Origin: Candidatus Saccharimonadota bacterium
GTDB lineage: Bacteria > Patescibacteriota > Patescibacteriia > 2-12-FULL-60-25
NCBI GenBank assembly: GCA_022843095.1
Contig: JALHOH010000002.1
Span: 210,001 to 242,000, forward strand
Length of the DNA stretch: 32,000 nucleotides
Direction: 5' to 3'
Shown here: positions 5,431 to 32,000 of the stretch, one piece after another
How positions within the stretch are numbered: position 1 is the stretch's first letter
How the letters are laid out: the number at the start of each line of letters is the position of its first letter
Position numbers and translations under genes: made by a program
Notes under the pieces: generated by a model
Told to the model about the DNA's origin: nothing
The model's input: the letters and a program-made list of their open reading frames with translations, nothing else
Databases searched by the model: none

Positions 5431-5433
5431 GGT

Positions 5434-6015: not shown

Positions 6016-6032
6016 CGGGTCGATTGTTTTTT
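6002..6032 (+). terminator. Rho-independent terminator after pth
   Basis: The stem is CAATCGGCCC / GGGTCGATTG with one mismatch. The loop TTGAC contains the pth stop codon. A T6 run follows. Confidence 0.6.
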
Positions 6033-6047
6033 GGAACGTGGTGAAGT

Positions 6048-7142
6048 ATGCCCCAGGATCACCGTACGACGCGCATCGCCATGCTCGCTGCGCCCGGTTT
6101 TACCAACCGCGAACGCCGCCATCTCCGTCGGGCGGTTCAAGGCGCGTGGGACGAGGCGTGGTCTATGCCTCCCTCTTTGCTAATGCAACGCGGATGTACC
6201 GAAACGCTTTGTCGGCATCTTGAAGCGTGGAAAACGCGCCTGGGTCATCCGGAGGCATTCCACGATCAACTGAGGCGAGCAGAGATCACCCCCCTCCTTC
6301 CAGAAGACGTCGCGTATCCGCTCGCGTTCCTGCACATGCCTGATGCGCCAGAACTCCTGTTTCTACGAGGATCACTTCCCCCGCACCCCTGCCTTTCCAT
6401 CGTCGGGACGCGACGGATGACCTCCTATGGCGTCCGTGTGCTACAAGAGCTCCTTCCACCTGCGATCGCACACGGATTTGGCATTATCTCCGGACTTGCG
6501 CTCGGAATCGATGGAACCGCACATCGCATCACGCTCGACCATCACGGATACACCCTTGGCATTCTGGGGACAGGAATCGAGAACGCCTCGATCTATCCTC
6601 GTAGCCACCTGTCACTCACGACTCGAATTCTTGCAGAAGGTGGTGGTCTCCTATCGGAATTTCCTCCAGGCACAGAAGGGCTCCCCCATCACTTTCCGCT
6701 GCGTAACCGCCTCATCGCCGCTGCCGGGATGGCGACTGTCGTGATCGAAGCAGACGTCGATTCCGGCTCGCTCATCACCGCGCGCGCGGCGCTCGATCTT
6801 GGAAAAGATGTGTTTGCCGTTCCCGGCTCTATCTTCTCTTCGGCGTCACAAGGAACGCATGCATTGCTCTCACAAGGAGCCCATCCATGCGTCTCGGTCG
6901 CGGCGCTCATCGACGCGATCGCGCTGGATCGCCCTGTCCTCGCCGATGCCGTTGCCATGACCCTCCCGGACGATCCATTTGCGCGGGCGATCCTGGAAAC
7001 CCTCACCGAACCGCTCACGACTGATACCTTAGCCGAGCGGCTGGATCGCCCCGTTCCGGACGTTCTTGCTGCCCTCGCCCTACTTGAACTCGATAGTCGC
7101 GTCGCCTCTCCAGATCGACTGACCTGGATCCGCCTGCGTTGA
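6048..7142 (+). CDS. dprA: DNA-processing protein DprA/Smf
   Basis: The DprA Rossmann core reads LSIVGTRRMTSYG...GIISGLALGIDGTAHRITL...ATVVIEADVDSGSLITA. The dprA-topA arrangement matches a common synteny. Confidence 0.9.
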   Translation: MPQDHRTTRIAMLAAPGFTNRERRHLRRAVQGAWDEAWSMPPSLLMQRGCTETLCRHLEAWKTRLGHPEAFHDQLRRAEITPLLPEDVAYPLAFLHMPDAPELLFLRGSLPPHPCLSIVGTRRMTSYGVRVLQELLPPAIAHGFGIISGLALGIDGTAHRITLDHHGYTLGILGTGIENASIYPRSHLSLTTRILAEGGGLLSEFPPGTEGLPHHFPLRNRLIAAAGMATVVIEADVDSGSLITARAALDLGKDVFAVPGSIFSSASQGTHALLSQGAHPCVSVAALIDAIALDRPVLADAVAMTLPDDPFARAILETLTEPLTTDTLAERLDRPVPDVLAALALLELDSRVASPDRLTWIRLR

Positions 7143-9806: not shown

Positions 9807-12065
9807 TTAGGTTGGCGTTCCCGGTTCTGCGGGCGCACCAAGCACCTTGTAGCGCAACTTGAGACGCCTTGCCTGGGCAAGTAAGGCCGTTTGCGAGGCG
9901 TTCATCACCACTGCCCCCTCAAGCTCCAGCTCCTCGGGCAATTCCGTCACCTGCGTCCCTGCCAGATTCAAATCCCCCTCAATCCGCTTGGGCAGCCCTC
10001 TCACATCCCGCAACTCCTCACATGCGGAGAGATCCACATCCCCCTTCACGAATTTAAGCCCCTTAGGAAACGATTCTAGATCTGGCTTCGTGACCTCAAG
10101 CCCCCCTTCGATAAACATATCTCCATCATCTTCAATCGTCACGAGAGATTTGGTTTGATCGACGGAGAATCCAAGTTTTCCGCCAAACTCCATCACCTTC
10201 TTATTTTTTTTCTCTGGATCCAGCCCTTCGCCGCCCTCTGAATATCCAGCGCCGATATAACTCATGCGCTTCTCTTCTTCTTTCAGATATTTTCTCCGCT
10301 GATCCTCGTTCATGCCCGTCATTTTTTCTCCGATCCAGTTCATGAGACGGGATTGTTTCCCTCCCGTATCCAATTTTCGTGCAAGCCAGAAGAAGAACCG
10401 AGAACCACCACTCAATGTCCCAACCGCACCCTTGGTCAACACTGATGCCGTTTCAATCGCAACGCCACCGATCCCCGCCCCTGTGGCTACCACCCCTTCC
10501 GTGAGTCCCCGTTCAAATTTGGACGGTTCGTGATAGGTAGAACGTTCCGTTTCTTTTGCGGCATACTCCTGCTCCAAACGCTGCTTTTCTGCCTGAATCG
10601 TCGTTCGCGTTTCACCAAGATGCAGAAGGTTCGATTGATGCGCCTCCAACGCCGTGCGCGCCGCCTGCGCCTTTTGTTCTGCTTGTGCGAGCTCATTCTT
10701 TAACGCTTCGTCCCCTCCCTCGATGGCAGTGACCGCGGATGCATTCAGATGCGCCGTCTCCAACGCCTGCTTTTTGGTCGCCGCCTCCTCGCTCGCCGTG
10801 CGCGCTAGAACCAGCAACTGCGCCTCTTTCTTTTGCGCTTCCGCGATCGCAAGTTCCGTCCCCACCTCTTCCTGCTCTTTCTGATTCAACAGTTTATATG
10901 CGGTAAACGCCGCAAGTGCCTTCGCATATCCTTCTTCGGTCGTAAAATCATTGCGACGAAGATTCATCACGGCGGCTTGCGCGGCTTTTCCGTTTTCGGC
11001 CACCTGCGCCGCTTCGCGTGACCACTTTTCCACATCCACCGCCTCAAGCACCGGCTTCAGGTCCGGAACGACGTCCTTTGGCGCTTCATACACCACAGGA
11101 ATCGTTTCATCGACCGCTGGGGGCGGGGTCAGCCCCTCCACCAATGCCTGATGCGACGCCAACTCTTCCGACGTGGCCTTGGCAGTTACCTCCGGAACCG
11201 GCTCGTCTTCGATGATTTCGATCTCTGGTCCGTCGTCCTCCGTCGTCATTGAAGACGCTTCTGCCACGGGTGGAGCCACGGATTCAGGAGCACTCGTCAC
11301 AGGAGCCGCAACGGTCGGAGCCACTTCAGCGGATGGCGGCTCTGATGTTTCCGCGGCAAGCGCTTCTAACGATTGGATCTGAGCCTGCAATTTTTTGGCA
11401 TTCTCCCCCGCAGGCGAGGCCTGTTCTGCAAGCAACTTCTTTTTCCCCTCCTGAACATGCTTCAAAAACGCCTGCGGATCATCCGCGACACGCGCAAGCA
11501 TGCCATATCGCGCCACTTCTGCCGGGACCTGCTGATGCGTCCCTTCCAACCGTTTTAACTCGTCCACCACGCCCTTCCGAAAATCCGGATCATGGACGAC
11601 GTAATGAACCAATTCAAGCGGCATGAGTCCTGGATTTCTAAGCCCCGCGATCGCATCGGTTCGTTTTTGCTTCACCCCTGCTTCGACATCCGATTCTGTC
11701 GGTGGAACCACCTCCGTCACCCGCTTCGCCAACGATTCCGCCTTGGTCTGCAACGCCACCCGTTTTGCATTCGCATCCGATCGCACCGCTGCGACCTGGG
11801 ACTGCGCCTCCGGAGATTCCCCCGCCACAATCCCCGCCGCGACCGTTCCGTACTTCTCTCCCTCTTGCGCGACCTCATTTTTGATCTCCTTCATCAAAAC
11901 CTTCGCCTGCTCCATTGGTGGGATATCTTTTAACAAAGACAACATGCGTTCTGCATCCGCATCGGCTATCGGAAGATCTCGTGCAGTGGATTCTCCTTGT
12001 TCGGAATGATGGAGAGCTGTTTCCTGCGCGGAAGTCTGAGCGGTTGAGGACGTCGCTGCGTTCAT
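9807..12065 (-). CDS. Hypothetical 752-aa protein: acidic/Pro-Ala-rich and coiled-coil regions, a Gly-rich hydrophobic segment and three C-terminal ~22-residue LRR-like repeats
   Basis: The track shows a continuous 933-aa ORF, but its first 181 codons are antisense to rel. I therefore trimmed the start to ATG 12065 (MNAATSSTAQ...), which has TGgTAGGAT 11 nt upstream. An alternative start is ATG 11945. No family-diagnostic motif was recognised. The C-terminus reads PDLESFPKGLKFVKGDVDLSAC / EELRDVRGLPKRIEGDLNLAGT / QVTELPEELELEGAVVMNASQT. Confidence 0.7.
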   Translation of the reverse strand: MNAATSSTAQTSAQETALHHSEQGESTARDLPIADADAERMLSLLKDIPPMEQAKVLMKEIKNEVAQEGEKYGTVAAGIVAGESPEAQSQVAAVRSDANAKRVALQTKAESLAKRVTEVVPPTESDVEAGVKQKRTDAIAGLRNPGLMPLELVHYVVHDPDFRKGVVDELKRLEGTHQQVPAEVARYGMLARVADDPQAFLKHVQEGKKKLLAEQASPAGENAKKLQAQIQSLEALAAETSEPPSAEVAPTVAAPVTSAPESVAPPVAEASSMTTEDDGPEIEIIEDEPVPEVTAKATSEELASHQALVEGLTPPPAVDETIPVVYEAPKDVVPDLKPVLEAVDVEKWSREAAQVAENGKAAQAAVMNLRRNDFTTEEGYAKALAAFTAYKLLNQKEQEEVGTELAIAEAQKKEAQLLVLARTASEEAATKKQALETAHLNASAVTAIEGGDEALKNELAQAEQKAQAARTALEAHQSNLLHLGETRTTIQAEKQRLEQEYAAKETERSTYHEPSKFERGLTEGVVATGAGIGGVAIETASVLTKGAVGTLSGGSRFFFWLARKLDTGGKQSRLMNWIGEKMTGMNEDQRRKYLKEEEKRMSYIGAGYSEGGEGLDPEKKNKKVMEFGGKLGFSVDQTKSLVTIEDDGDMFIEGGLEVTKPDLESFPKGLKFVKGDVDLSACEELRDVRGLPKRIEGDLNLAGTQVTELPEELELEGAVVMNASQTALLAQARRLKLRYKVLGAPAEPGTPT

Positions 12066-12076
12066 AGGATGACCAC

Positions 12077-12085
12077 ATCCTACCA
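12077..12085 (-). promoter_or_regulatory. Putative extended -10 element for the 752-aa hypothetical gene
   Basis: The minus strand reads TGgTAGGAT, 11 nt upstream of ATG 12065. Confidence 0.3.
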
Positions 12086-12093
12086 CAAAGACG

Positions 12094-12122
12094 TTGCCAG
12101 CGCCTGTAAACAGGGGCACACT
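12094..12122 (+). promoter_or_regulatory. Putative rel promoter (leaderless configuration)
   Basis: TTGCCA (12094-12099), a 17-nt spacer, CACACT (12117-12122), then 6 nt to ATG 12129. Confidence 0.45.
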
Positions 12123-12128
12123 GCAGAC

Positions 12129-13634
12129 ATGCCTACCGTCGCCCCCGTACAAACCATTGATGGCCTCTGCGAGGCCGTTCTTGCCTTTGATCCGCAAGCA
12201 GATACGGCGCTCATTCGACGTGCCTACGCGTTTGCGGAGGAAGCCCATCGCCCACAAAAACGCGCGACCGGAGAACCCTACATCATCCATCCGCTTGCCA
12301 CGGCGTTTACCCTCGCCGACATGAAGCTCCCGACGAGCATCATCGTCGCTGGGCTTTTGCATGATGTTCCAGAAGACACGGAGCGCACGCTGGAAGAAAT
12401 CGAATCCGCGTTCGGCGCCGATGTCGCTGGGATGGTGGGCGGAATTACGAAACTGGGAAAAATTAAATACCGCGGCATGGAGCGGTACATGGAAAACCTC
12501 CGAAAAATGTTCTTGGCGATGGCTGCGGACGTTCGGGTGGTTTTCATCAAATTCGCGGATCGCCTGCACAATCTTCAAACACTCGAAGCCATCCCTCCGC
12601 AAAAACAATATCGCATCGCGTTGGAATCCCTAGAAATCTATGCCCCTATTGCGAACCGACTGGGCATGGGGGAAATGAAAGGACGTCTCGAAGACGCGGC
12701 GTTCAAATACGTCCTGCCGAAGGAATATCAGTGGAGCAAAGAGCTTGCGAAAAAAACACGTGAAGACAAACAGCAATACCTTGACCGCGTCCTTGTGCTT
12801 GCCGAGGAAGAGCTCAAAGAAACGGGCATTCGTTTCACTGAAGTGCATGGTCGTGCCAAGCACCTGTATTCGTTATACAAAAAATTACTCAAAAACGAAC
12901 GCAATATTGCGCGGATTTATGACATCATGGCGGTACGCGTCATCGTGGAGAACGTCGCGGATTGCTATGCCGCTTTGGGCGTCATTCACGGACGATGGAC
13001 GCCGCTAAAAGGTCGGATCAAGGACTACATCGCTCAGCCAAAACCCAACGGATACCGTTCGCTTCACACCACCGTCTTTTGCGAGGATGGTGAAATTGTG
13101 GAGTTTCAAATTCGAACGCTCGAGATGCATCGCGAGGCGGAATACGGGATCGCGGCACACTGGTCCTACGACGAAGAAAAAAAGAAGTACATCACCGGCA
13201 AAGACGCCTCCGTCCCAACCTGGGTCAAGGAATTGGCAGACATTCAAGAAGAATTACAGGACAAAAAACGCTATGTCGAATCGCTGGAAGAGCTCAAAAT
13301 CGACATGTTTAAGGACCGTATTTTCGTCTTTACCCCAAAAGGCGACGTGATCGATCTCCCTGAAGAAAGTACCTGTGTCGATTTTGCGTACGCCATTCAC
13401 ACGGACATCGGGAATACCTGCAGCGGCGCAAAAGTGAATGATGCCGTGAGTCCGCTGGAACGCATCCTAAAAAATGGCGACATGGTCGAGATCATCGTGG
13501 ACAAAGGACGAAAAGGGCCCAATCCCGACTGGATCAAGTTCGTAAAAACGCACCACGCTAAATCAAAAATCCGACAATACGCAAAAACGACCTTGCGGTC
13601 GTGGATTGCGGGGATGATTCCCGGGCACAAGTAG
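12129..13634 (+). CDS. rel: Short bifunctional (p)ppGpp synthetase/hydrolase (RelA/SpoT homolog) that ends soon after the TGS domain
   Basis: The HD hydrolase motifs are HRPQKRATGEPYIIHPL...LLHDVPEDT. The synthetase motifs are YRSLHTTV...EFQIRTLEMHREAEYGIAAHWSYDE. The TGS domain reads IFVFTPKGDVIDLPEESTCVDFAYAIHTDIG. I set the start at ATG 12129 because TTGCCA-17-CACACT lies 6 nt upstream. The track start is 12069. Confidence 0.9.
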   Translation: MPTVAPVQTIDGLCEAVLAFDPQADTALIRRAYAFAEEAHRPQKRATGEPYIIHPLATAFTLADMKLPTSIIVAGLLHDVPEDTERTLEEIESAFGADVAGMVGGITKLGKIKYRGMERYMENLRKMFLAMAADVRVVFIKFADRLHNLQTLEAIPPQKQYRIALESLEIYAPIANRLGMGEMKGRLEDAAFKYVLPKEYQWSKELAKKTREDKQQYLDRVLVLAEEELKETGIRFTEVHGRAKHLYSLYKKLLKNERNIARIYDIMAVRVIVENVADCYAALGVIHGRWTPLKGRIKDYIAQPKPNGYRSLHTTVFCEDGEIVEFQIRTLEMHREAEYGIAAHWSYDEEKKKYITGKDASVPTWVKELADIQEELQDKKRYVESLEELKIDMFKDRIFVFTPKGDVIDLPEESTCVDFAYAIHTDIGNTCSGAKVNDAVSPLERILKNGDMVEIIVDKGRKGPNPDWIKFVKTHHAKSKIRQYAKTTLRSWIAGMIPGHK

Positions 13635-17331: not shown

Positions 17332-17360
17332 ACAATAATCCGACGAATGATTCTCGTCAA
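17332..17360 (-). promoter_or_regulatory. Putative promoter of tRNA-fMet
   Basis: The minus strand reads TTGACG (17360-17355), a 17-nt spacer, then TATTGT (17337-17332). The mature tRNA 5' end is 14 nt downstream. Confidence 0.5.
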
Positions 17361-18865
17361 GCCGCATCGTGTGACCGAATCGTATCAGGAGCGATCGTTT
17401 GCTCTAACCCAATTCCCGGGGCAAGCGTCGCCTCCATTCCATATCCCGTGGACGGCGCTTTTTCCCCGCGGGCCCACGCCAAAATCTGTTCTGCGTCCAT
17501 CTGCGCCAGCTCCGGAATCTGCAATCGCTTCTCCGATCCAAGCGCTGCCGCAAACCCATTCAGCGTCTTAACCGTGTTCAATCCATTCATGAGCACCACG
17601 TAATCCGACATTTCCGTTGTTTCGCCGCGTTGAATTTTTTGCAATGTTTTTTGAAACGCCTTCAAATTGATCGGCGCGTCCGGACTATCACTAATCAACG
17701 GATCCGGCATACGCAATTTCCAAGGCCCATTCGGTGTTTCTTTAGCAAATTGGATGTTATCGGCGCCAGCAAAATCCAATATCTCCCCTGATTTCGCAGA
17801 ATACTCAATAAGCTGCTCCACAGAGGTTTTTGCCGTGTTTCGCAATTGATCCGCCTCTGTAGGATCTGTTTGTGCAAGTCGATCGATCGTCTCCAAGATA
17901 GGACGGATATTTCCCGCAACCTCCTTCACTGCCTCTGCCCTAGACGGATCCATAGGCCCGCCCTTCAGAAGAACATCGAACGCATTCTTGTAGCTGGCTT
18001 CAAAACGTTGCGCCTCTGGCTGATCCCGTCCTTCCATCGCCTGGTTTTTGTACTGTCGCTCTGCATACCCGGCCCCAAATGACACCTTTTCGGCCACCGG
18101 CTTTAGGCGACGCTGCACCATGATCCACACCGGCATTTTTTCACGAAAATCATCCGGCACCTGATCCGCGAATTCCGGGACAAGTGCCTGCACCATTTCT
18201 TTCGTCACCTCGATATCCGGCGTGAAGTACTTTGCTGCAGGAAAGACCTCCGGACCAAAGGCGCGCAATAATTCCCGCGTCCTCCCGAACTCCGCTTTTG
18301 TCTGTGCCAGCATCCGTTCCTTGCCGTGGTCTTCTTGCACACCGCCAAGCGACTCCATGCGTTCCAACAATTCACGCTTATGCAAACCGAGTTTTAATGC
18401 CTCTGCCAGCTTTTGATCCTCCGTCGCGCCCTCTCGTTGCATCACCTGCGATGTCATCTGATCCACCGACGCCACTGACGAAGCGAGTTGTCGCGCTTCT
18501 AAAAATCGCTTGATGTTTTCTGCCGTTTTTTGATAATTGACCTTATACACGATATTTTTTGCGACCTCGCTTTCAAAGAGAAGGACAGCGTGTTCCCCTC
18601 CTTTGAATGATTGCGGCGTATCTCCGGATTGAAACCCTTCATGAAACTGCTTCATGAAATCCGGGTGTTTGGCAAAAAATCCCTGTACCTCCTCCTGCGC
18701 TGCAGACAATGCAAACTTCTCCCCCGATTCTACCGGAGATGTGCCGCGCTCTGTTCGCTCAGTCGCCATCGCCTCCTGATGCTTTTTCTGCTCTTCCAGT
18801 GCAAGCTGCTCCGGGGTAATGGTTCGATCTGCGACGGCTCCGCCTTCAAATCCCATACCCTTCAT
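17357..18865 (-). CDS. Hypothetical 502-aa protein with protein/lipid-kinase-like motifs
   Basis: The track ORF is 17357..18925. Its first 20 codons (TTG start, GGRQGWCHSGCGWGEGQGK) look non-coding, so I chose ATG 18865 (MKGMGFEGG). No recognisable family was found. Kinase-like strings are GGEHAVLLFESEVAKNIVYKV and ILDFAGADNIQFAKETPNGPWKLRMPDP. Confidence 0.65.
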   Translation of the reverse strand: MKGMGFEGGAVADRTITPEQLALEEQKKHQEAMATERTERGTSPVESGEKFALSAAQEEVQGFFAKHPDFMKQFHEGFQSGDTPQSFKGGEHAVLLFESEVAKNIVYKVNYQKTAENIKRFLEARQLASSVASVDQMTSQVMQREGATEDQKLAEALKLGLHKRELLERMESLGGVQEDHGKERMLAQTKAEFGRTRELLRAFGPEVFPAAKYFTPDIEVTKEMVQALVPEFADQVPDDFREKMPVWIMVQRRLKPVAEKVSFGAGYAERQYKNQAMEGRDQPEAQRFEASYKNAFDVLLKGGPMDPSRAEAVKEVAGNIRPILETIDRLAQTDPTEADQLRNTAKTSVEQLIEYSAKSGEILDFAGADNIQFAKETPNGPWKLRMPDPLISDSPDAPINLKAFQKTLQKIQRGETTEMSDYVVLMNGLNTVKTLNGFAAALGSEKRLQIPELAQMDAEQILAWARGEKAPSTGYGMEATLAPGIGLEQTIAPDTIRSHDAA

Positions 18866-18910
18866 CTTACCCTGTCCCTCACCCCATCCACAACCGGAGT
18901 GACACCACCC

Positions 18911-18939
18911 TTGTCGTCCTCCCAATCATTCAGTATGCT
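18911..18939 (+). promoter_or_regulatory. Putative promoter of the tRNA-Leu transcription unit
   Basis: TTGTCG (18911-18916), a 17-nt spacer, TATGCT (18934-18939), then a GC-rich discriminator (TTCCCCGC). The predicted leader before the tRNA is ~79 nt. Confidence 0.45.
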
Positions 18940-24662: not shown

Positions 24663-24983
24663 ATGAGCATTTTCTCCAAACTGAAGCAAATCAACGACAT
24701 TCGCAGCAAAGCAAAGCAGCTCCAAGAAGCGCTTGCTAAAGAATCCGTGGAAGGAACCGCCGGATGGGGCAAGGTGAAGGTCACCATCAACGGCAACCAA
24801 CAAATTTTAGGTGTCTCCATCGATGAAGCCGCGATGAGCGACCGCGCCGCGCTGGAAGGGATGGTTCGGGATGCGACGAACGATGCCATCAAGAAAATCC
24901 AGCAAACCATGGCGACCAAGCTCAAAGATATCGGCGGTCTGGATTTGGCGAAAGAAATGGGCGACGTGATGAACCAGGGCTAA
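24663..24983 (+). CDS. ybaB: Nucleoid-associated protein YbaB/EbfC
   Basis: The 106-aa product contains KAKQLQEALAKESVEGTAGWGKVKVTINGNQQILGVSID. It is followed 3 nt later by recR, the classic ybaB-recR pair. Confidence 0.9.
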   Translation: MSIFSKLKQINDIRSKAKQLQEALAKESVEGTAGWGKVKVTINGNQQILGVSIDEAAMSDRAALEGMVRDATNDAIKKIQQTMATKLKDIGGLDLAKEMGDVMNQG

Positions 24984-24986
24984 TCC

Positions 24987-25586
24987 ATGCGCATCCCCGA
25001 TCCCCTTGAACGCGCCGCTGCGGCGTTTGACGCTCTGCCGGGGATCGGTCCTCGCGCCGCGTTGCGGTATGCCTATTGGCTTGTGACGCAACCCGCGACA
25101 CAAATCCAGCAATTTGCCGCCGCTATCCAAGGACTCGTGGGGACCGTGCGAACTTGCCCTTCCTGCCACCAATGGACGGAAGGAGATCAATGCCGCGTCT
25201 GTACCGACGCCACCCGCGACGGAACCCTGCTTTGCGTCGTTAGCTCTTCGCAGGATGCACAGGCCATCGAAGACACGCGTGCGTTCAAAGGACGGTACCA
25301 TGTTCTGGGTGGGACGATCGATCCGATCGAAGGACGAACGCCGGAGAAGCTCACGATCCCGCATCTTCTCGAACGCATCCGTCGCGCCACCCCTTCGATC
25401 ACCGAAGTGATCCTTGCGCTGGACACAGACGTGCAAGGAGACACGACGGCGCTGTATCTGCGCAAACAACTGGTCCCTCTGGGCGTCCGTGTGTCTGCGC
25501 TTGCCCGAGGCCTTCCGAGCGGTGCCGCGCTTGAATACGCCGATCCGCACACGTTGGCAGATGCCCTCATGAACCGAAAGCCCTAG
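24987..25586 (+). CDS. recR: Recombination protein RecR
   Basis: The HhH motif is ALPGIGPRAALRYAYWL and the C4 zinc finger is CPSCHQWTEGDQCRVC. A Toprim region (VILALDTDVQGDTTALYL) is also present. Confidence 0.95.
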   Translation: MRIPDPLERAAAAFDALPGIGPRAALRYAYWLVTQPATQIQQFAAAIQGLVGTVRTCPSCHQWTEGDQCRVCTDATRDGTLLCVVSSSQDAQAIEDTRAFKGRYHVLGGTIDPIEGRTPEKLTIPHLLERIRRATPSITEVILALDTDVQGDTTALYLRKQLVPLGVRVSALARGLPSGAALEYADPHTLADALMNRKP

Positions 25587-26021: not shown

Positions 26022-26633
26022 TTAGTTCAGGGTGTTCTGCTGTGAAAAACAGCCTAAATACCGCTGAAGAACCAGTTCCCACGCGTCTAAATCTGGAAAG
26101 TCCTGTTGCTGCATCACCTCAGTCAATAGGGCAGCCCAGCGCGCATCTCGTACGTCAGGGGTAAAAGGACTTGCCTCAAGCGCCTTGGCCGCCGCAAGCA
26201 GGTACTGAGGATTAACGAGAAGAAGCCCGATGCTCGCATAGAGCACATTCTTAATCTCATCTTCCCCCTCAGGAGAAATCCTCACCGATGCACTCCTGGA
26301 AACAGGAAAGAGGCGGCGGAGGTCCAATCCCAGGCTGGAAAGTCCACACAGAAATGCACAGAACGGATTCCCGCCGACCAACCGATCGATCAGGAGGGCA
26401 ATCAGCGGAACCTTGCCGGGCATTGGCGGAGTCGCTCCGGTATACCCATGCACGTCACGCACATGTCGCACCATCGCGTCATAGAAGCGACGCAATTCCT
26501 CTCCACTGATCTGCCGGCTTGGGTCATTCTCTTGCAAAATGCTGAGCTGCACTTGTGCACAATCCTCAGCACTCGCAGAGCCGTGAACACGAAGGGTCGC
26601 GAACCACACGTTTACCAATTGCTCCAATGTCAT
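26022..26633 (-). CDS. Hypothetical 203-aa protein (predicted mostly helical, no recognised family)
   Basis: The ORF is open throughout. A strong SD (AGGAGG) lies 5 nt upstream of ATG 26633; the track start 26636 is a GTG. The gene has its own rho-independent terminator at 25992-26016. Its codon choice looks different from neighbours, being richer in CAG and CTG. Confidence 0.6.
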   Translation of the reverse strand: MTLEQLVNVWFATLRVHGSASAEDCAQVQLSILQENDPSRQISGEELRRFYDAMVRHVRDVHGYTGATPPMPGKVPLIALLIDRLVGGNPFCAFLCGLSSLGLDLRRLFPVSRSASVRISPEGEDEIKNVLYASIGLLLVNPQYLLAAAKALEASPFTPDVRDARWAALLTEVMQQQDFPDLDAWELVLQRYLGCFSQQNTLN

Positions 26634-26676
26634 CACAACCTCCTGTTCCGGAATAGATCAAAAAAAGGGAAAAAGG

Positions 26677-27204
26677 TCAATATGCTTCGATATTGTTCAC
26701 ATCAGGAAGGATGGAACCGACACGAATCCCGTACCGTGCCGCATCTCCCGCCGGAACTTCCAGAATATGCGTCGCGGAAACCGGGGGAATCACGGTGCGC
26801 GGGATCCCATGGGTCTCGGACGGGGGCTGGACACGTTCCGCAAGAAATACCACCCGCCCATCTGCAATCCACAGGATATCGATCGGAAAATGCATATCTT
26901 TCATCCAAAACGGGTGGATCCCCCGTGCGCCCATCACAAACAGCATCCCCGTCCCGGTCGCCATTTCCGATCGTCCTCCCAAGCCACGTCTGAGCCCCTC
27001 CGGCCGCGTCACCACCTCCACGGTGATGCGTTCGGTCCCAATATCCCACGTTTCCATACGTGGCGCCTCCCAACGATCCTCCGACGACACAACCAACGTC
27101 GCGCTTTGCCCCGTAACGAATCGCCACACAAAAAATCCGAACCCTCCAAGAACAAGCCCTGCAAAGAAAAGCAAGAAAAAAACGCGTCGCATACCGTGCA
27201 TCAT
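26677..27204 (-). CDS. DUF192-domain protein with an N-terminal membrane anchor
   Basis: The DUF192 signature is GLGGRSEMATGTGMLFVMGARGIHPFWMKDMHFPIDILWIADGRVV...ATHILEVPAGDAARYGIRVG. The TM helix is RRVFFLLFFAGLVLGGFGFFVW. ATG 27204 lies 1 nt after the TAG stop of the upstream transferase. Confidence 0.8.
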   Translation of the reverse strand: MMHGMRRVFFLLFFAGLVLGGFGFFVWRFVTGQSATLVVSSEDRWEAPRMETWDIGTERITVEVVTRPEGLRRGLGGRSEMATGTGMLFVMGARGIHPFWMKDMHFPIDILWIADGRVVFLAERVQPPSETHGIPRTVIPPVSATHILEVPAGDAARYGIRVGSILPDVNNIEAY

Positions 27205-27205
27205 G

Positions 27206-28279
27206 CTACGGTCGGCGATGACGTGCAATCCAACCTGCCCCAAAGGACAGCGCCGAGGTCAACAAACAAAGCCCCACCAAGACCAACAATTTCCCGCGCG
27301 TCTGCAACCCCAAGGCCAACAAACCGGCGCACAGGGAAAGCGACCAGATCACGATGACCGCCTGCCCCTTGGAGAGGCCGGCGTCCAACAAACGGTGATG
27401 CAAATGCGAACGATCTCCCTGAGTCAACGGCGCACGACGCCAAAGCCGTCCAAGCAATACGACGGCAGCATCTACAATCGGAACGCCAAGCACCATAAGC
27501 GCCGTCGCCACCTTTGTCCCAGAAACGATGGACAAAAACGCTAACGAAAATCCCACGATCGTACTCCCCGATTCTCCAAGAAACTGCCGCGCCGGCCAAA
27601 TGTTTCGCGGAAGAAACCCCACAAACGATCCACCGACGATCGCCGCGAGGGTCGTCACGGCCGGTTGGTAAAACGTCACCGATTGCGTGAGCGCCGCGAT
27701 CATACCGGCCCCGATGATTCCGAGCCCCGTGATCAACCCATCCAACCCGTCCATGAGTTTGGTCGCATACGTCACCCCAAGCAGCCAGCAAAACGTCAGC
27801 ACATCTGCCGGCAACGAAAAGGCCCCTCCCCATGGAAACGGCCATTGCCACCATCCAAGTCCAAACGCCCCCGTTCCCGACCAATGCGTGACCTGGACAA
27901 TCCCGGTTCCCGTCAGCATGACCGCGATGGCAGCAAGCAAAGGAAACACAATCTGGATGCGTGGCGGAAGGGTGTACCGATCATCCGCATATCCGCCAAG
28001 AAGCAACAGGAGAATACCGATGCCGAATCCAACCAATTGCACCGGACGAATCTCCCCTGCAAACGCTCCGAATCCGTACGCCACCACCCCAACCACGAGC
28101 ATCGCGATCCCGATCCCCATCCCGCCGAATTCGGGCGTCGGATGCGCGTGGATATGCCGTCCGCCCAGTGGAGCCTTCACGATCCCTGTCCGCACCGCCC
28201 AACGCGCCCACACCCAAGAGAGTCCGGCGGCACAAATGGCCGAGACACAGGCATATCCGACAAACGAGAGGTCGCGCAT
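27206..28279 (-). CDS. Polyprenyl-phosphate N-acetylhexosamine-1-phosphate transferase (Glycos_transf_4; WecA/TagO-like rather than MraY)
   Basis: This is a polytopic protein with the motifs GGYADDRYTL, KLMDGLDGL, GESGSTIVGF and DRSHLHHRLLDAG. I set the start at ATG 28279 (MRDLSFVGYA) because TTGCGT-17-TACCAT lies upstream. The track start 28336 would remove the divergent intergenic region. Confidence 0.85.
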   Translation of the reverse strand: MRDLSFVGYACVSAICAAGLSWVWARWAVRTGIVKAPLGGRHIHAHPTPEFGGMGIGIAMLVVGVVAYGFGAFAGEIRPVQLVGFGIGILLLLLGGYADDRYTLPPRIQIVFPLLAAIAVMLTGTGIVQVTHWSGTGAFGLGWWQWPFPWGGAFSLPADVLTFCWLLGVTYATKLMDGLDGLITGLGIIGAGMIAALTQSVTFYQPAVTTLAAIVGGSFVGFLPRNIWPARQFLGESGSTIVGFSLAFLSIVSGTKVATALMVLGVPIVDAAVVLLGRLWRRAPLTQGDRSHLHHRLLDAGLSKGQAVIVIWSLSLCAGLLALGLQTRGKLLVLVGLCLLTSALSFGAGWIARHRRP

Positions 28280-28292
28280 TGACTTCCCCCCT

Positions 28293-28321
28293 ATGGTATG
28301 GTGCGCTTTTCCTGCACGCAA
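28293..28321 (-). promoter_or_regulatory. Putative promoter of the WecA/TagO-like and DUF192 operon
   Basis: The minus strand reads TTGCGT (28321-28316), a 17-nt spacer, then TACCAT (28298-28293). ATG 28279 is 13 nt downstream. Confidence 0.45.
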
Positions 28322-28334
28322 GAAAGGAGGGGGC

Positions 28335-28763
28335 ATGACGTCCCAGAAACTGCGCGTTCACATCTTCGATCATGACGAAGAGATGCGCCTGCAGATTCTG
28401 GAGGAATTGCAGCGCGCAACACCCGTACCTCCGGCGATGATCGCGCCAACTGCCTACGTCGAATGCTGGTGGCACAGCGCCGCACTTCCCGAACCGAACG
28501 ACATGCTCCCCGTCCCCGTCGACATCGCCATCGTGGATCTAAGCCTGATTCCGGACGATCTCGCAGTGACGAAATTCATCACCCGGATGACGCAAGCGAA
28601 CCGGTTGTATCCGGTCACGTTTTTGCTCATAGGTGATGACTGGGCCCTTCAATCCACTCGAACAAAATACGCGCCATTCGGCATCGAGCACGGATGTACG
28701 CGAGGCGACTGGAAACGCTTTCACGCCATGCTCGAAAAAATCCGGGTAAAACTCCTGGGCTAA
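28335..28763 (+). CDS. Stand-alone receiver (REC)-like protein with a degenerate phospho-acceptor pocket
   Basis: This is the last 142 codons of track ORF 27687..28763. ATG 28335 is preceded by AAGGAGG with a 4-nt spacer. The beta-alpha pattern is LRVHIFDHDEE / VDIAIVDLSLIPDD / PVTFLLIGDD. The conserved Thr/Ser and Lys positions are not evident. Confidence 0.55.
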   Translation: MTSQKLRVHIFDHDEEMRLQILEELQRATPVPPAMIAPTAYVECWWHSAALPEPNDMLPVPVDIAIVDLSLIPDDLAVTKFITRMTQANRLYPVTFLLIGDDWALQSTRTKYAPFGIEHGCTRGDWKRFHAMLEKIRVKLLG

Positions 28764-28795
28764 CCCCCTCTCTCTACGGAAGGGGGTCTTTTTTA
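28763..28795 (+). terminator. Terminator after the REC-like gene, overlapping the stop codon of the convergent Clp-like gene
   Basis: ACCCCCT - 11-nt loop - AGGGGGT is followed by CTTTTTT. Confidence 0.5.
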
Positions 28796-31495
28796 TCCGT
28801 GAAACGGCTCTACGCGCAGTGTCCCGCCCGCATCCAACACGATGGTGTCTTTGCGTGCCACGGCTTTCTTCAACAGAAGATCCGCCAGTTGATTTTCGAT
28901 GCGATCCTGCAACACGCGCCGCAGCGGACGTGCGCCAAACAACGGATCAAACCCCGCACGTGCCAATTCCTCCACCGCGGATGCATCCGCACGGAATCCG
29001 ATCCCTTTTTCTGCCAAGCGCGCCTCCATTTTGGCGAGCAGCAGGTGTGCGATTTGAACGACCGAGGAAAGTGCGAGCGGCGTAAAGACGATCACGCCAT
29101 CAAAACGATTCAAGAACTCCGGACGAAAGGTCCCCTTTAATTCCTGCTCCAATAACGCCGTCTTGATCTGCTCCACCGGCGCGCCGGAACGCACACGATC
29201 CTGGATAAAGGCCGTGCCCGCATTCGACGTCGCAATGAGAACAACGTTCGTAAAATCAACCGTCCGACCAACGCCATCCGTCAGTCGCCCATCATCCATC
29301 ACCTGCAAAAAGAGGGTCAGAATATCCGGATGCGCTTTTTCCAACTCATCCAGCAACACGATGGCAAACGGCCGTTTACGCACCGCTTCCGTCAATAATC
29401 CGCCTCGTGGATCACCCGCCGCACCGATCATGCGCGCGATGGACGCAGCGTCCTGATACTCGGACATATCGAGACGCACCATCGCTTGCTCACTGCCAAA
29501 ATATTCTGCCGCCAGCGCCTTGGCGAGCTCGGTTTTTCCAACACCCGTTGGTCCAAGAAACAAAAAGTTGGCGATTGGACGACGCGTCTCACGCACCTCT
29601 GCACGCGCACGTCGCATCGCGGCCGCGACCGCCTGCACCGCCTCCTCCTGTCCGATGACCCGCGCATGCAAACGCTCCTCCAATGCGAGCAACTTCGCCG
29701 ACTCATCCACCCCAACCGCCTCCACTGGAATCTGGGTTTTCTCTTGTACGACTTGCGCAACATCTTCCCCGGTTACAAAGGCTCCATCCCCATGCGCTTT
29801 GCGTGCCAGTACCGCCGCTTCTTTCATGAGTCCAATCGCAGACTCCGGTAACCGCACGTCGCGCAAATATTTTCCGGCAAAAAACACGGCACGTTCCAGC
29901 GCAGCGTACGAAAAAAAGACGTTTTGTTCGTATTCAATGGAACCGCTTCGCGCCATCAGGACCTGCACCGCCTCGTCTGACGGCAATTCACGCACCAGAA
30001 TCTTCGCGAGCTTTCCTCCAAGCGAACGCCGCTCCAAAAACGACGTCCACGCTTCCGGGGTCGTGGTTGCAAGGACCTGCACAGAACCACGATCAAGTTC
30101 GGTCGCCAAGGTCTCCGCCAAATCCATCGGACCCATTCCGTGACCCCCCGTGAGCGCTTCAATCCCTTCCAACACCAGCACAATATTTCCGCTGATCCCC
30201 ACTTCACGCAGCATGGTCAACAGGCGCTCTGGCGCCTCGGCCGGATCACCGGAAGCCAATAATTCAGGCAACTTAATGGAGACAAGTCGCTTATCAAACA
30301 GGATTTTTGGCACCGTCTCTTCGACCATGGCGCGCGCCAATTGCTCGACCAGCGCCGTTTTTCCCACCCCGGATTCTCCCACCAACACGATCCCGCTTTT
30401 CCCGCTCTCAAACGCACGAAACAGCTCTTCTCGCTCGCGATGTCTTCCCACCATTGGACCAATGTATCCTCGACGGGCCGCATGCGTCAGATCTTCGCTA
30501 AATCGATCCAATAGAGGCGTTTGGCGTGCGGTCATGGTCCGGTTCATCGCGGTATCTGGCTTCAACCGCGCAAGCAACGCGAACCGATCATGTTCTTCAC
30601 GCAATTGCTCTTGGATACGCAACCATTCCGCAACGTGCTGGACATGTGCCGGCGGAAAACCCGCTGCATCAAGCGCATCCTGAACGCCTTGATCGGCGGC
30701 ATAGGCGGCCAAAAAGATTTCCACGGCGCTTACATGCTTCCGACCCACGGTCCGCGCATCCAAATAGGCACGCAACAACACCTCTTTCGCTTCACGAGAC
30801 AATCGCGTGGGCGTCCCCACCTGTCCCTCGCGCAATAGGGCCACCAACCGATCTTTCACCGCTTCAAACGGCATGGCGAGACGCGTCAAAAAAATCCCAC
30901 CCGTCGGCGAGGTCAACGCCGCCACAAACAAATGAGCGGGCACAAGCTCGGTGCGTCCCACTTTTTTGGCAAAGCCATATGCGTCTTCGATCACCTGCCA
31001 GGCGGATGAAAGAAAATACGGCGAAACGTCATGCGCATGTGCCGGTGCTTCGTTCGGGACCTCAGATACACCGGATCGCATCCCCCAATGTGGAAGCGTT
31101 TTCACCTCTTCACGAAACACACGAAGGCGAAACACGAGGAACGATCCAAGAAACACCGCCGCCCAAAATGCCTGCACAAACCAATATCCCGACGTCCAAA
31201 AGGTGGCGGAAAGCAAGGCATCGGCATCGTCCAAACGCACCAAGCCATACACAAACAACGAAAACAGGACCACAACGACGCCTCCAAGCCCCGCATGCAA
31301 CAGCACATGAATGCGGTGTTTTGTCTTCCGGAACGCCAGAGAAAAATCATCAATCGGCGCAAGCCAGACCAGCTGCCCGTCCTGAGACGGAAGCGAAAGG
31401 CCCGCCCCCTGACATTCGCGACATCCAACAGAGGCGCGCGGATCACCGCCGCAACGCGGACACATAACCGGAGAAACGTGGGCGTCAGGAGCCAT
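28793..31495 (-). CDS. Membrane-anchored Clp/Hsp100-family double AAA+ ATPase with an N-terminal 4-Cys zinc ribbon, two TM helices and a Clp_N domain
   Basis: The zinc ribbon is CPRCGGDPRASVGCRECQGAG. The TM helices are VLLHAGLGGVVVVLFSLFVYGLV and WFVQAFWAAVFLGSFLVFRL. Clp_N repeats include VPAHLFVAALT and SAVEIFLAAYA. D1 has Walker A GESGVGKT. D2 has Walker A GPTGVGKT, Walker B VLLDELEKAH and GARPLRR. An alternative start is ATG 31465 (MCPRCGG). Confidence 0.85.
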   Translation of the reverse strand: MAPDAHVSPVMCPRCGGDPRASVGCRECQGAGLSLPSQDGQLVWLAPIDDFSLAFRKTKHRIHVLLHAGLGGVVVVLFSLFVYGLVRLDDADALLSATFWTSGYWFVQAFWAAVFLGSFLVFRLRVFREEVKTLPHWGMRSGVSEVPNEAPAHAHDVSPYFLSSAWQVIEDAYGFAKKVGRTELVPAHLFVAALTSPTGGIFLTRLAMPFEAVKDRLVALLREGQVGTPTRLSREAKEVLLRAYLDARTVGRKHVSAVEIFLAAYAADQGVQDALDAAGFPPAHVQHVAEWLRIQEQLREEHDRFALLARLKPDTAMNRTMTARQTPLLDRFSEDLTHAARRGYIGPMVGRHREREELFRAFESGKSGIVLVGESGVGKTALVEQLARAMVEETVPKILFDKRLVSIKLPELLASGDPAEAPERLLTMLREVGISGNIVLVLEGIEALTGGHGMGPMDLAETLATELDRGSVQVLATTTPEAWTSFLERRSLGGKLAKILVRELPSDEAVQVLMARSGSIEYEQNVFFSYAALERAVFFAGKYLRDVRLPESAIGLMKEAAVLARKAHGDGAFVTGEDVAQVVQEKTQIPVEAVGVDESAKLLALEERLHARVIGQEEAVQAVAAAMRRARAEVRETRRPIANFLFLGPTGVGKTELAKALAAEYFGSEQAMVRLDMSEYQDAASIARMIGAAGDPRGGLLTEAVRKRPFAIVLLDELEKAHPDILTLFLQVMDDGRLTDGVGRTVDFTNVVLIATSNAGTAFIQDRVRSGAPVEQIKTALLEQELKGTFRPEFLNRFDGVIVFTPLALSSVVQIAHLLLAKMEARLAEKGIGFRADASAVEELARAGFDPLFGARPLRRVLQDRIENQLADLLLKKAVARKDTIVLDAGGTLRVEPFHG

Positions 31496-31898
31496 ACGAA
31501 GAAAAAACGGAAGTCAATGGATTCCATCCAATACCATCGGAGATGTTTACCACGAGCAAAAACAACGCAATCGGCGGCCAACCCATCCACAAAAGGACGA
31601 TCAGCGCGTAGACAAGCGCCTCAATCCCGAGTGCGATCGCGCGGAAGAAGATCACCACAAACCGCATGAGAACACTGATCAGACGACCGGACCATTCGTG
31701 TTCTCCGTACATCGGCACAAAGAAATGACGCAACCAAAGTGGGATTGCATAGGCACGTGCGCGATACCTGAGTCCTTGCCACCCCCAACGCGCGACCGCA
31801 ACCACGCCATCCGAATACCACCACACCGGAAAACGGACCACGCTCCCCGCAAGATCAACCACGGCAAACGAAAGAAGCGAACGCAGGGCCTGGGCCAT
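31485..31898 (-). CDS. Small Trp-rich membrane protein, overlapping or coupled to the Clp-like ATPase gene
   Basis: The product begins MAQALRSLLSFAVVDLAGSVVRFPVWWYSDG. C-terminal hydrophobic helices include VLMRFVVIFFRAIALGIEALVYALIVLLWMGWPPIALFLLVV. Its stop (31485-31487) lies 11 nt inside the Clp-like ORF. I chose ATG 31898 because TGgTATACT lies 8 nt upstream. The track start is 31925. Confidence 0.55.
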   Translation of the reverse strand: MAQALRSLLSFAVVDLAGSVVRFPVWWYSDGVVAVARWGWQGLRYRARAYAIPLWLRHFFVPMYGEHEWSGRLISVLMRFVVIFFRAIALGIEALVYALIVLLWMGWPPIALFLLVVNISDGIGWNPLTSVFSSYGS

Positions 31899-31906
31899 AT
31901 GGGTGC

Positions 31907-31915
31907 AGTATACCA
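31907..31915 (-). promoter_or_regulatory. Putative extended -10 promoter of the small membrane protein and Clp-like operon
   Basis: The minus strand reads TGgTATACT, followed by 8 nt and then ATG 31898. Confidence 0.4.
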
Positions 31916-32000
31916 AATGACGCATAAAAAAACTTCCCCGAACACGCCAATGTCGGAGAAGTCATCCACACGCGACAGAACCCGCGCGGCAACAGCGTTC

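Follow-up and report, generated by a model that had tools for sequence, protein, structure and literature searches.

In the accepted mechanism of Clp/Hsp100 ATPases, aromatic pore loops grip the polypeptide. Torsins are Clp-related, membrane-associated proteins that carry no aromatic pore loops, depend on membrane-protein cofactors and are thought to be non-processive, and they set the precedent for a Clp-related, membrane-associated AAA+ protein without such loops (PMC5425593). Here we analyze a stretch of 32,000 nucleotides (nt), called the window below, that spans positions 210,001-242,000 of contig JALHOH010000002.1 (assembly GCA_022843095.1) from a Candidatus Saccharimonadota bacterium (Patescibacteriota). 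It encodes a Clp/Hsp100-type double-AAA+ ATPase, predicted to be membrane-anchored, together with a small conserved membrane protein. The ATPase belongs to a family that is clearly Clp/Hsp100 by descent and fails several defining features of working ClpA, ClpB and ClpC. Under purifying selection in hundreds of species, this family has dropped the aromatic pore loops and appears to keep a full motor in its second AAA+ module (D2), an inactive first module (D1) and a membrane location, which would make the Clp scaffold reusable for other work.

D1 has lost and D2 has kept the catalytic residues of an AAA+ ATPase

The window ATPase was aligned pairwise with HMMER to Thermus thermophilus ClpB (1qvr), Staphylococcus aureus ClpC and Bacillus subtilis ClpC, and with MAFFT to a canonical ClpB of the same lineage, encoded at homologous locus L074, together with 15 diverse family members. 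Residues flanking the departures described below have high posterior support in the HMMER alignments to ClpB and ClpC. Two sets of homologues supplied the counts. A protein search gave at least 120 full-length clusters at 56-66% identity, and column counts were taken on 120 of these close homologues; most clusters lack a source name and the named ones are Candidatus Uhrbacteria or Patescibacteria. Independently, a small-protein profile was scanned against one genome per GTDB species (244 genomes with a match, 80 loci kept), and 70 full-length species-level ATPase homologues at 38-62% identity were recovered in this way. Counts out of 71 comprise these 70 and the window protein.

In the pore-1 loop region of D1, LLASGD-PAEAPERL is aligned opposite ClpB LLAGAKYRGEFEERL by HMMER, a result reproduced with MAFFT, and 70 of the 71 family sequences have no Phe, Tyr or Trp there. 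The close homologues share the loop consensus AAGDPxLAxERL, with Asp and Pro each present in 105 of 120. At the D1 Walker B motif, IVLVLEGIEAL stands opposite ClpB ILFIDELHTV (over a wider stretch, NIVLVLEGIEAL opposite EVILFIDELHTV in HMMER). The corresponding consensus of the close homologues is IILVL[HEQNY]G-I-E, the catalytic Glu position being occupied by Gly in 109 and Asn in 11 sequences, and the species-level homologues have Gly or Asn nearly throughout, with Asp in L075 and L079. The Thr/Ser position of the D1 Walker A motif is freely variable in the family (GKT, GKG, GKA, GKD, GKM, GKS, GKK, GKL, GKQ) and the D1 Arg-finger pair is unconserved. Because the catalytic Glu is missing, the Walker A Thr/Ser varies and the Arg finger is not conserved, D1 appears to be a pseudo-ATPase ring throughout the family. 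Pfam matches in D1 are AAA_lid_9 at residues 507-568 and generic P-loop hits.

A separate feature of D1 is an ERRS motif (L-E-R-R-S; residues 488-491, nt ~30023-30034, minus strand) that is conserved in the core clade and resembles the Arg-finger sequence L-E-R-R-F of ClpB. It lies four residues upstream of the ClpB Arg-finger position in the sequence alignment and could be a shifted D1 Arg finger in this clade.

D2 is assigned to AAA_2 (residues 639-799, E = 4e-54) and ClpB_D2-small (residues 810-886, E = 4.6e-21). Walker A (GPTGVGKT), Walker B (LLDELEKAH), sensor 1 (TSN), the Arg finger (NRFD, R797) and sensor 2 (GARPLRR) are intact; the catalytic residues are invariant in the 120 close homologues, and the motifs are invariant or nearly so across the family. 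At the D2 pore-1 loop, IGA----AGDPRGG is found opposite ClpB IGAPPGYVGYEEGG (longer span, IGA----AGDPRGGLLTE opposite IGAPPGYVGYEEGGQLTE), and in the MAFFT alignment with the L074 ClpB the loop is 4-6 residues shorter than that of ClpB across the family. No aromatic residue is present in 66 of the 71 sequences; the exceptions for both the D1 and D2 loops have a Phe somewhere in the scanned segment, not a pore-loop Tyr. Close homologues read IG[AE]PGD[ED]RGGL, with Asp in 120 and Arg in 113 of 120.

HMMER leads the window ATPase from the D1 lid (~residue 568) directly to the D2 linker (~residue 571), bypassing the ClpB M-domain (residues 409-518), and in the MAFFT alignment 41 residues separate lid and linker compared with 165 in ClpB. 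An M-domain was found in no family member aligned, and with it the ClpB-type element for coupling to DnaK is absent. At the site of the VGF/AGF docking insertion of ClpC, the window ATPase aligns to ClpB without a gap. A scan of positions 740-800 in all 71 sequences for a ClpP-docking [ILVM]G[FL] tripeptide returned only an LGL in L011, which is unlike a docking loop.

An earlier note on this DNA had reported a D1 pore loop without Tyr, a D1 Walker B motif in which Asp is replaced by Glu and the catalytic Glu by Gly, a shortened D2 loop without Tyr, intact Walker A and B and GARPLRR motifs in D2, and the absence of both an M-domain and a ClpP-docking tripeptide. The HMMER and MAFFT alignments reproduce both sets of departures in D1 and the shortened D2 loop, the family counts extend the two loop findings, and the alignments together with the 71-sequence scan bear out the remainder.

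The departures are shared by the whole family

Positions conserved at 93% or more make up 36% of D2, 16% of D1, 5% of the N-domain and 0% of the transmembrane (TM) module. The pore-loop sequences of D2 are constant within clades and different between them (GDERGG, GE--PG, GQKGTG, DGTLG), and those of D1 are likewise clade-specific (GDP, QGG, TTP, ADS). Loops that change from clade to clade beside a nearly invariant D2 core would be expected of a protein whose work is done by the ATP-hydrolyzing core of D2 and not by the pore loops. Judged from these comparisons, the departures belong to the family and not to one decaying gene. Their family-wide occurrence strengthens the view, put forward in the earlier note, that the ATPase is unlikely to be a conventional unfoldase.

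A membrane anchor precedes the N-domain

Hydropathy analysis places two hydrophobic segments at residues 61-91 and 104-127. An AlphaFold2 model of the ATPase, computed from a 70-sequence alignment (predicted local distance difference test score, pLDDT, 86; predicted template modeling score, pTM, 0.67), has helices at residues 50-86 and 105-128, preceded by a small beta-rich ribbon (10-43) and followed by a helical N-domain (163-310). At a strict threshold, 59 of the 70 homologues also show two hydrophobic segments. The two TM helices predicted in the earlier note are thus upheld by hydropathy, modeling and conservation. The hairpin has basic residues on either side, at what would be its cytoplasmic ends (FRKTKHR ahead of TM1, RLRVFREEVK following TM2), and a short acidic loop between its helices; from this we infer an N-in/C-in topology that places both ribbon and ATPase in the cytoplasm. 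A translation start downstream of the TM helices, which the earlier note had named as a finding that would overturn its reading, is refuted because the TM region aligns at the protein level throughout the homologues, the N-terminal membrane module being conserved in ~190 of them. A homology search with the N-terminal 173 residues (ribbon and TM module) for other architectures gave no matches.

The N-domain aligns to ClpC residues 11-140, to ClpA from residue 25 onward and to the TIGR02639 model from position 7. Clp_N was not recovered in a direct Pfam scan of the N-terminus of the window ATPase; PF02861 (Clp_N) is part of the precomputed annotation of P0001, a database protein identical to the window ATPase, and of most homologues. 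With Clp_N placed by alignment and by the annotation of P0001, the domain order given earlier (ribbon, two TM helices, Clp_N, D1, D2) stands.

The ribbon, a putative zinc module, is less constant. Its Cys columns are filled in 98-100 of the 120 close homologues, and the pattern CxxCGGD..R.S..CxxCxGAG is present in 49 of the 70 species-level homologues and absent from 21 in several subclades. In a divergent clade of the ATPase both motifs are of canonical DnaJ type (CPxCxGxG..CxxCxGxG); in the window protein the second motif, CRECQGAG, is an exact fit to the DnaJ pattern and the first reads CPRCGGD. A direct Pfam scan of the region returned only a faint match to Anti-TRAP (E = 0.4). The ribbon is an accessory module, and its presentation as a defining feature in the earlier note was overstated given the homologues that lack it.

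The ATPase gene is paired with a gene for a small membrane protein

The small protein represents a real, conserved and so far unannotated family. A profile search of 1.84 billion representative proteins found 511 clusters at 50% identity, nearly all of 115-135 residues and stand-alone, and no match to the small protein was found in Pfam, NCBIfam or PADLOC. FPxWWY..G, W64, VPMYG, GR..S, R88 and R95 are invariant in the family alignment (A1), and the conserved start corresponds to M10 of the open reading frame (ORF), at window position 31898. An AlphaFold2 model (pLDDT 88.5) consists of two long helices, for which Foldseek found only chance-level helical matches in the PDB (E above 2). Strong hydrophobicity is confined to residues ~85-130, where R88, R95 and E102 share one helical face. 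The earlier description as a polytopic, Trp-rich membrane protein holds in part: its membrane character is supported, the word polytopic is uncertain in view of the single hydrophobic region, and Trp-rich is too strong since only 3 of its 9 Trp residues are conserved in the family.

The two genes of the window share exactly 11 nt (ATGGCTCCTGA) between the ATPase start and the end of the small-protein ORF, as had been noted before. Among the 80 small-protein loci, 79 have the Clp-like ATPase directly downstream on the same strand, and in the remaining one the contig ends 7 nt past the small gene. Conversely, all five loci found via the ATPase have the small gene upstream. The pairing in related genomes, named in the earlier note as a check, therefore holds in all 79 testable loci and in 5 of 5 from the ATPase side. 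In 59 of 70 loci the small gene terminates between -8 and +8 nt from the assigned ATPase start, which also speaks against a start downstream of the TM helices; this spacing is approximate, the starts in homologous loci having been assigned partly by alignment to the window protein.

In one database protein of 414 residues, P0200, the small-protein sequence continues into that of the ATPase N-terminus. P0200 matches ~1484-2251 of locus L083 plus the ATPase start and is most likely a frameshift or gene-calling artefact of that locus, for which reason we rejected it as an informative fusion; a natural fusion of this type would be direct evidence for a complex of the two proteins.

Several of the metagenome-assembled genomes with such loci (L011, L015, L018, L019, L023, L025, L029, L079 and others) are titled 'uncultured Gammaproteobacteria', 'Candidatus Methylomirabilis' or 'Candidatus Kapaibacterium'. 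Judging by shared synteny and sequence identity, these titles are probably taxonomic mislabels or the result of bin contamination.

The ATPase appears to be a specialized paralogue of ClpB/ClpC

Foldseek comparison of the ATPase model with the PDB returned ClpC and ClpB chains as top matches (E = 1e-55 to 1e-42 over ~800 columns). Among NCBIfam models those for ClpB, ClpA, ClpK, ClpG and ClpV rank highest, all far under their curated cut-offs (TIGR03346, ClpB: 525.7 bits, cut-off 1232.1; TIGR02639, ClpA: 442.8, cut-off 993.15). The architecture is that of class I Clp/Hsp100 proteins (Clp_N, two AAA+ modules, AAA_2 plus ClpB_D2-small). The protein departs from the class in lacking aromatic pore-1 loops in D1 and D2 and in having an intact Walker B motif in D2 only. 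It is separated from ClpB by the missing M-domain and the NCBIfam score, and from ClpA and ClpC by the missing ClpP loop and the TIGR02639 score.

In L074, which belongs to a distant AT-rich clade, a canonical ClpB of 879 residues (4038-6677, minus strand) is the divergent neighbor of the pair. It has AKFRGE in D1, IFIDELH, a coiled-coil M-domain and GYVGY in D2 (GSPPGYVGYDEGG). L078, of the same clade, encodes at least a canonical ClpB D1 region (~5644-6363, minus strand) at the position of the L074 clpB. Because a canonical ClpB coexists with the pair in L074, and at least its D1 region in L078, the membrane ATPase is best regarded as a specialized paralogue of ClpB/ClpC and not as the drifted sole Hsp100 of its hosts.

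A different AAA+ neighbor is encoded divergently upstream of the pair in L004 (4433-5431), L048 (~5789-6784) and L051 (~5354-6346), in each case on the minus strand. This protein of 332 residues has one N-terminal TM helix and a single canonical D1-type AAA+ module (GEPGVGKT, GTRYRGE, ILFIDELH, DRRF, AAA_lid_9). Such a membrane-anchored single-ring Clp-like ATPase seems unusual in itself.

The pair has its own predicted promoter and a conserved neighborhood

In 62 of 69 loci the small-gene ATG is preceded, at a distance of 5-11 nt (typically 6-8), by the end of a -10 hexamer (TATAAT or TATACT), which is TGn-extended in 51. No Shine-Dalgarno-like motif was found before the small gene in the 69 loci or in the window. 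The conserved -10 element at 6-8 nt from the ATG, combined with the absence of a Shine-Dalgarno motif, supports a conserved leaderless mRNA for the pair, and the leaderless-type promoter read from the window in the earlier note gains the backing of these homologous loci. A generic sigma-70 scan of the window that required a -35 element found no promoter at the pair. Further upstream, the GC-rich hairpin and T-run have equivalents in many homologous loci and probably terminate transcription of a preceding ftsL-like gene, parting the pair from the mraZ operon. With this terminator upstream and a promoter of its own, the pair would form a separate transcription unit.

The loop of the hairpin is unusually alike across loci (..TCGCGTG.., ..TTGGCGTG.., ..GCGCGTG..; L025, L027, L036, L044, L054-L060, L062, L073). 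The hairpin may do more than terminate transcription, perhaps binding a protein or an RNA; Rfam gave no family match in the window.

The gene order in homologous loci is uvrC ... mraZ - rsmH - a ~121-residue TM/coiled-coil FtsL-like protein - terminator and promoter - small protein - ATPase - Glycos_transf_4 (GT4) - DUF192 - L21 ... recR, ybaB, dnaB. mraZ and rsmH lie upstream of the pair in 51 of 56 loci in the range L007-L086 and also in L001 and L003-L006. For the window pair, mraZ, rsmH and ftsL are placed from the homologous loci only and would lie beyond position 32000. In the classical division and cell wall (dcw) cluster, ftsI and mur genes occupy the position that follows mraZ - rsmH - ftsL.

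In 55 of 61 loci the ATPase is followed by a GT4 gene of the same strand. Even clades at 38-43% identity keep the string of small protein, ATPase and GT4, the distance from ATPase to GT4 being 35-105 nt there. In NCBIfam the best model for GT4 is wecA, far under its cut-off, and mraY scores lower still. MraY was ruled out as the identity of GT4 on its model score (45.5, cut-off 192) and the higher score of wecA. GT4 also contains the motif DRSHLHHRL, which we take to be WecA/TagO-like. The recurrence of GT4 and DUF192 behind the ATPase in at least 53 of 61 loci, also at 38-43% identity, suggests that the ATPase pair is functionally tied to the initiation of a lipid-linked glycan.

In the window, the gap between the ATPase and GT4 is filled by a convergent ORF of 142 codons that has no Pfam match. 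Genes of 153-166 codons occupy its place in L001, L005 and L006 and are missing where GT4 abuts the ATPase; similarity of the window ORF to the L001 gene is weak (E = 0.18). Elsewhere on the minus strand, ORFs of 933 (9807-12608), 522 (17357-18925), 247 (24807-25550) and 204 (26022-26636) codons have no Pfam match at E <= 1e-5. The latter three are also without an NCBIfam match, the 933-codon ORF having been scanned by Pfam only. The surroundings are otherwise of housekeeping type, with parA, parB, scpA, scpB, dnaB, relA/spoT, a Na+/H+ exchanger, a D-Ala-D-Ala carboxypeptidase and three tRNAs.

Table 1. Features of the ATPase locus, in window coordinates (aa, amino acids).
Feature	Position	Strand	Basis and remarks
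Clp/Hsp100-type double-AAA+ ATPase, predicted membrane-anchored	28793..31495	-	ORF call; 900 aa, ATG start
Putative 4-Cys zinc ribbon	31400..31462	-	aa 12-32, CPRCGG...CRECQGAG; CxxCGGD...CxxCxGAG, DnaJ-type CxxCxGxG
Predicted two-helix TM hairpin	31115..31315	-	aa ~61-127; hydropathy, AlphaFold2, homologues
Clp_N-type N-domain	30566..31009	-	aa ~163-310; alignments, precomputed PF02861
D1, degenerate AAA+ module	29786..30517	-	Walker A GESGVGKT; no Walker B Asp-Glu
D1 pore-1 loop region	30224..30262	-	aa 412-424, LLASGDPAEAPER; no aromatic residue
D1 degenerate Walker B	30158..30184	-	aa 438-446, IVLVLEGIE; ClpB ILFIDELH
D2, AAA+ module with complete catalytic motifs, and D2-small domain	28826..29776	-	Motifs by alignment; Pfam
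D2 pore-1 loop	29399..29428	-	aa 690-699, IGAAGDPRGG; 4 residues shorter than ClpB GYVG loop, no Tyr
Small conserved membrane protein	31485..31898	-	137 aa from conserved ATG; ORF 31485..31925 is 146 aa
Extended -10 element TGGTATACT	31907..31915	-	Sequence reading; 8 nt before ATG at 31898
GC hairpin CTTCTCCG / CGGGGAAG	31926..31961	-	Sequence reading; 13-nt loop, then T7
WecA/TagO-like polyprenyl-phosphate sugar-1-phosphate transferase (Glycos_transf_4, GT4)	27206..28336	-	Pfam PF00953
DUF192 protein	26677..27243	-	Pfam PF02643; downstream in 53/61 loci
142-aa ORF, convergent with ATPase, in ATPase-GT4 gap	~28335-28763	+	Terminator-like hairpin 28768-28786 (+)

Possible modes of action of the pair

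Our best reading, to which we give an even chance, is that the pair forms a two-protein membrane AAA+ machine, specific to an Uhrbacteria-type lineage of the ultra-small Patescibacteria, in which the ATPase acts as a D2-powered, non-threading membrane remodeller that is functionally Torsin-like. A Clp-like hexamer would be held with its N-domain/D1 face at the cytoplasmic side of the membrane, since the anchor precedes the N-domain. D1 would serve as a static assembly ring and D2 as the sole consumer of ATP. The pore loops would be unable to grip a polypeptide and hand-over-hand threading would not occur; because the loops appear gripless and vary between clades while the catalytic core of D2 is nearly invariant, the ATP cycle of D2 would instead drive a conformational switch or the assembly or disassembly of a membrane-bound client or partner. 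Contact would probably be made through the small subunit and the N-domain. The fixed position of the pair between mraZ-rsmH-ftsL-like genes on one side and the WecA/TagO-like transferase and DUF192 on the other points, weakly, to a client that probably acts in envelope biogenesis or division. It is possible, at somewhat less than an even chance, that the pair is a bacterial counterpart of Torsin in the fuller sense of an Hsp100 derivative without threading and with a dedicated small subunit, whose live D2 ring remodels an envelope or division complex.

Several points weigh against non-threading remodelling at the membrane. The physical interaction of the small protein and the ATPase is read from gene adjacency only, and both proteins were modeled as monomers, so that the hexamer and the complex are proposals. 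Strong conservation of the loops within the core clade (GDP in D1, GD[ED]RGG in D2) could reflect a specific, unusual substrate instead of idle loops, and a membrane-facing entry side with a retained N-domain would also be expected of a membrane-protein extractase. The division and envelope synteny could be inherited gene order without functional meaning; the pair is set apart from the mraZ operon by a terminator and a promoter of its own, and an opposite-strand gene intervenes in the window between the ATPase and GT4.

These loops and the orientation of the ring are also what would favor a translocase that still threads, gripping an unusual substrate with charged, shortened loops (Asp in D1; Asp and Arg in D2). 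Its substrate might be basic juxtamembrane segments of membrane proteins, as for an FtsH/Msp1-style dislocase without a protease, or a non-protein polymer tied to the neighboring glycosyl-phosphate transferase. D2 would provide a complete motor, the core-clade loops are conserved and not decaying (Asp and Pro of D1, each 105 of 120; Asp and Arg of D2, 120 and 113 of 120), the N-domain is kept, and the N-terminal anchor would, like that of FtsH, bring the side where substrates enter next to the membrane. However, the loop motif is unconserved across clades, with the D1 loops varying even more, and a D2 loop shorter by 4-6 residues should widen the pore; to our knowledge, there is no threading AAA+ protein in which an acidic residue replaces the aromatic paddle. 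We consider continued threading unlikely, if still a serious possibility. The Clp-type neighbors described above (the canonical clpB in L074, at least its D1 region in L078 and the 332-residue D1-only AAA+ protein in L004, L048 and L051) would suit an ATPase that is a membrane tether or regulator, hetero-oligomerizing with or recruiting canonical ClpB or the TM-anchored D1-type protein so that these partners supply the threading loops, and a pseudo-ATPase D1 would fit such a role. Yet they occur in only 5 of ~85 loci, full D2 catalytic machinery would be needless for a passive tether and mixed rings are without support, which makes a tethering role improbable.

The database names, the overall fold and the D2 similarity to ClpC and ClpB would place the protein with the ordinary ClpC-type 'ATP-dependent Clp protease ATP-binding subunit' that unfolds substrates for ClpP. 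The alignments already speak against this assignment, with the ClpP loop, the M-domain, the pore aromatics and the D1 Walker B motif all missing and the NCBIfam Clp scores far under their cut-offs, and we regard it as very improbable. Partial PADLOC matches of the ATPase to DolB and PDC-M37B (D2 core, residues 598-766) raised an anti-phage defense module of a ClpB-like ATPase and a membrane effector, as in Dodola. They cover the generic AAA_2 core only, with DolB matching no more than residues 598-758, a full-length DolB with a DolA partner was not found, the small protein has no PADLOC match, and the synteny in 244 species genomes is fixed and of housekeeping type, not that of variable islands. 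On PADLOC coverage and synteny we rejected a defense system, which we find scarcely credible.

The findings have consequences beyond this locus. The annotation 'ClpC / ATP-dependent Clp protease ATP-binding subunit' is misleading for the family and gives no basis for inferring ClpP-dependent proteolysis. The family would offer a prokaryotic, sequence-rich system for studying how non-threading, Torsin-like AAA+ proteins turn ATP hydrolysis into function, and a candidate membrane machine with a partner and an envelope or division context for the Patescibacteria, whose cell biology is almost unknown. Were the pair indeed a Torsin counterpart, it would be a previously unrecognized, lineage-defining membrane machine of the Patescibacteria and a natural experiment in a paddle-less Clp ring. 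Its function is inferential and the organisms are uncultured; a paddle-less membrane Hsp100 that runs on D2 only and has a dedicated partner would surprise AAA+ specialists.

Comparison with known systems

A full-text literature search found no description of a membrane-anchored Clp protein without pore-loop aromatics in Patescibacteria. With ClpB, ClpC and ClpA the window ATPase has in common a Clp_N-type N-domain, two AAA+ modules and the D2-small domain, and its predicted fold superposes on ClpC and ClpB. Compared with ClpB and ClpC, the D2 core is 40-50% identical and contains all catalytic motifs. Unlike these proteins, it is predicted to be an integral membrane protein with a ribbon and a TM hairpin, a dead D1, paddle-less loops and a short D2 loop, and its family is obligately paired with a small membrane protein. 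It also lacks the M-domain that ClpB and ClpC have and the ClpP loop of ClpA and ClpC. ClpX and ClpE similarly carry a C4 module, in our case putatively zinc-binding, at the N-terminus of a Clp ATPase, and the CxxCxGxG motif occurs in DnaJ; in the window protein, by contrast, a TM hairpin lies between ribbon and ATPase, and the ribbon is missing from 21 of 70 homologues.

FtsH has two TM helices per protomer. The predicted topology of the window ATPase resembles that of FtsH and Msp1 in that an N-terminal TM anchor places the entry face of the ring at the membrane. The window ATPase, however, shows neither the aromatic pore loops and single ring of those proteins nor the protease domain of FtsH. 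In PTEX (Plasmodium HSP101-EXP2), a ClpB-type ATPase is functionally coupled to a membrane protein, but HSP101, which is not itself embedded in a membrane and has retained the tyrosines of its pore loops, threads cargo into a pore.

Torsins reside in the eukaryotic endoplasmic reticulum and nuclear envelope and are related to the D2 of Clp/Hsp100 proteins. The window ATPase shares with them the combination of missing aromatic pore loops and membrane association by which they are defined (PMC5425593). In contrast to the single, lumenal module of Torsins, which has no Arg finger of its own and receives one from LAP1/LULL1, it has two modules, an invariant R797 in D2, an extra pseudo-D1 ring and an N-domain, and is predicted to be cytoplasmic. 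The small protein is helical in its model and does not share the AAA-like fold of the Torsin cofactors. The window ATPase is an analogue of Torsin, not a member of its family.

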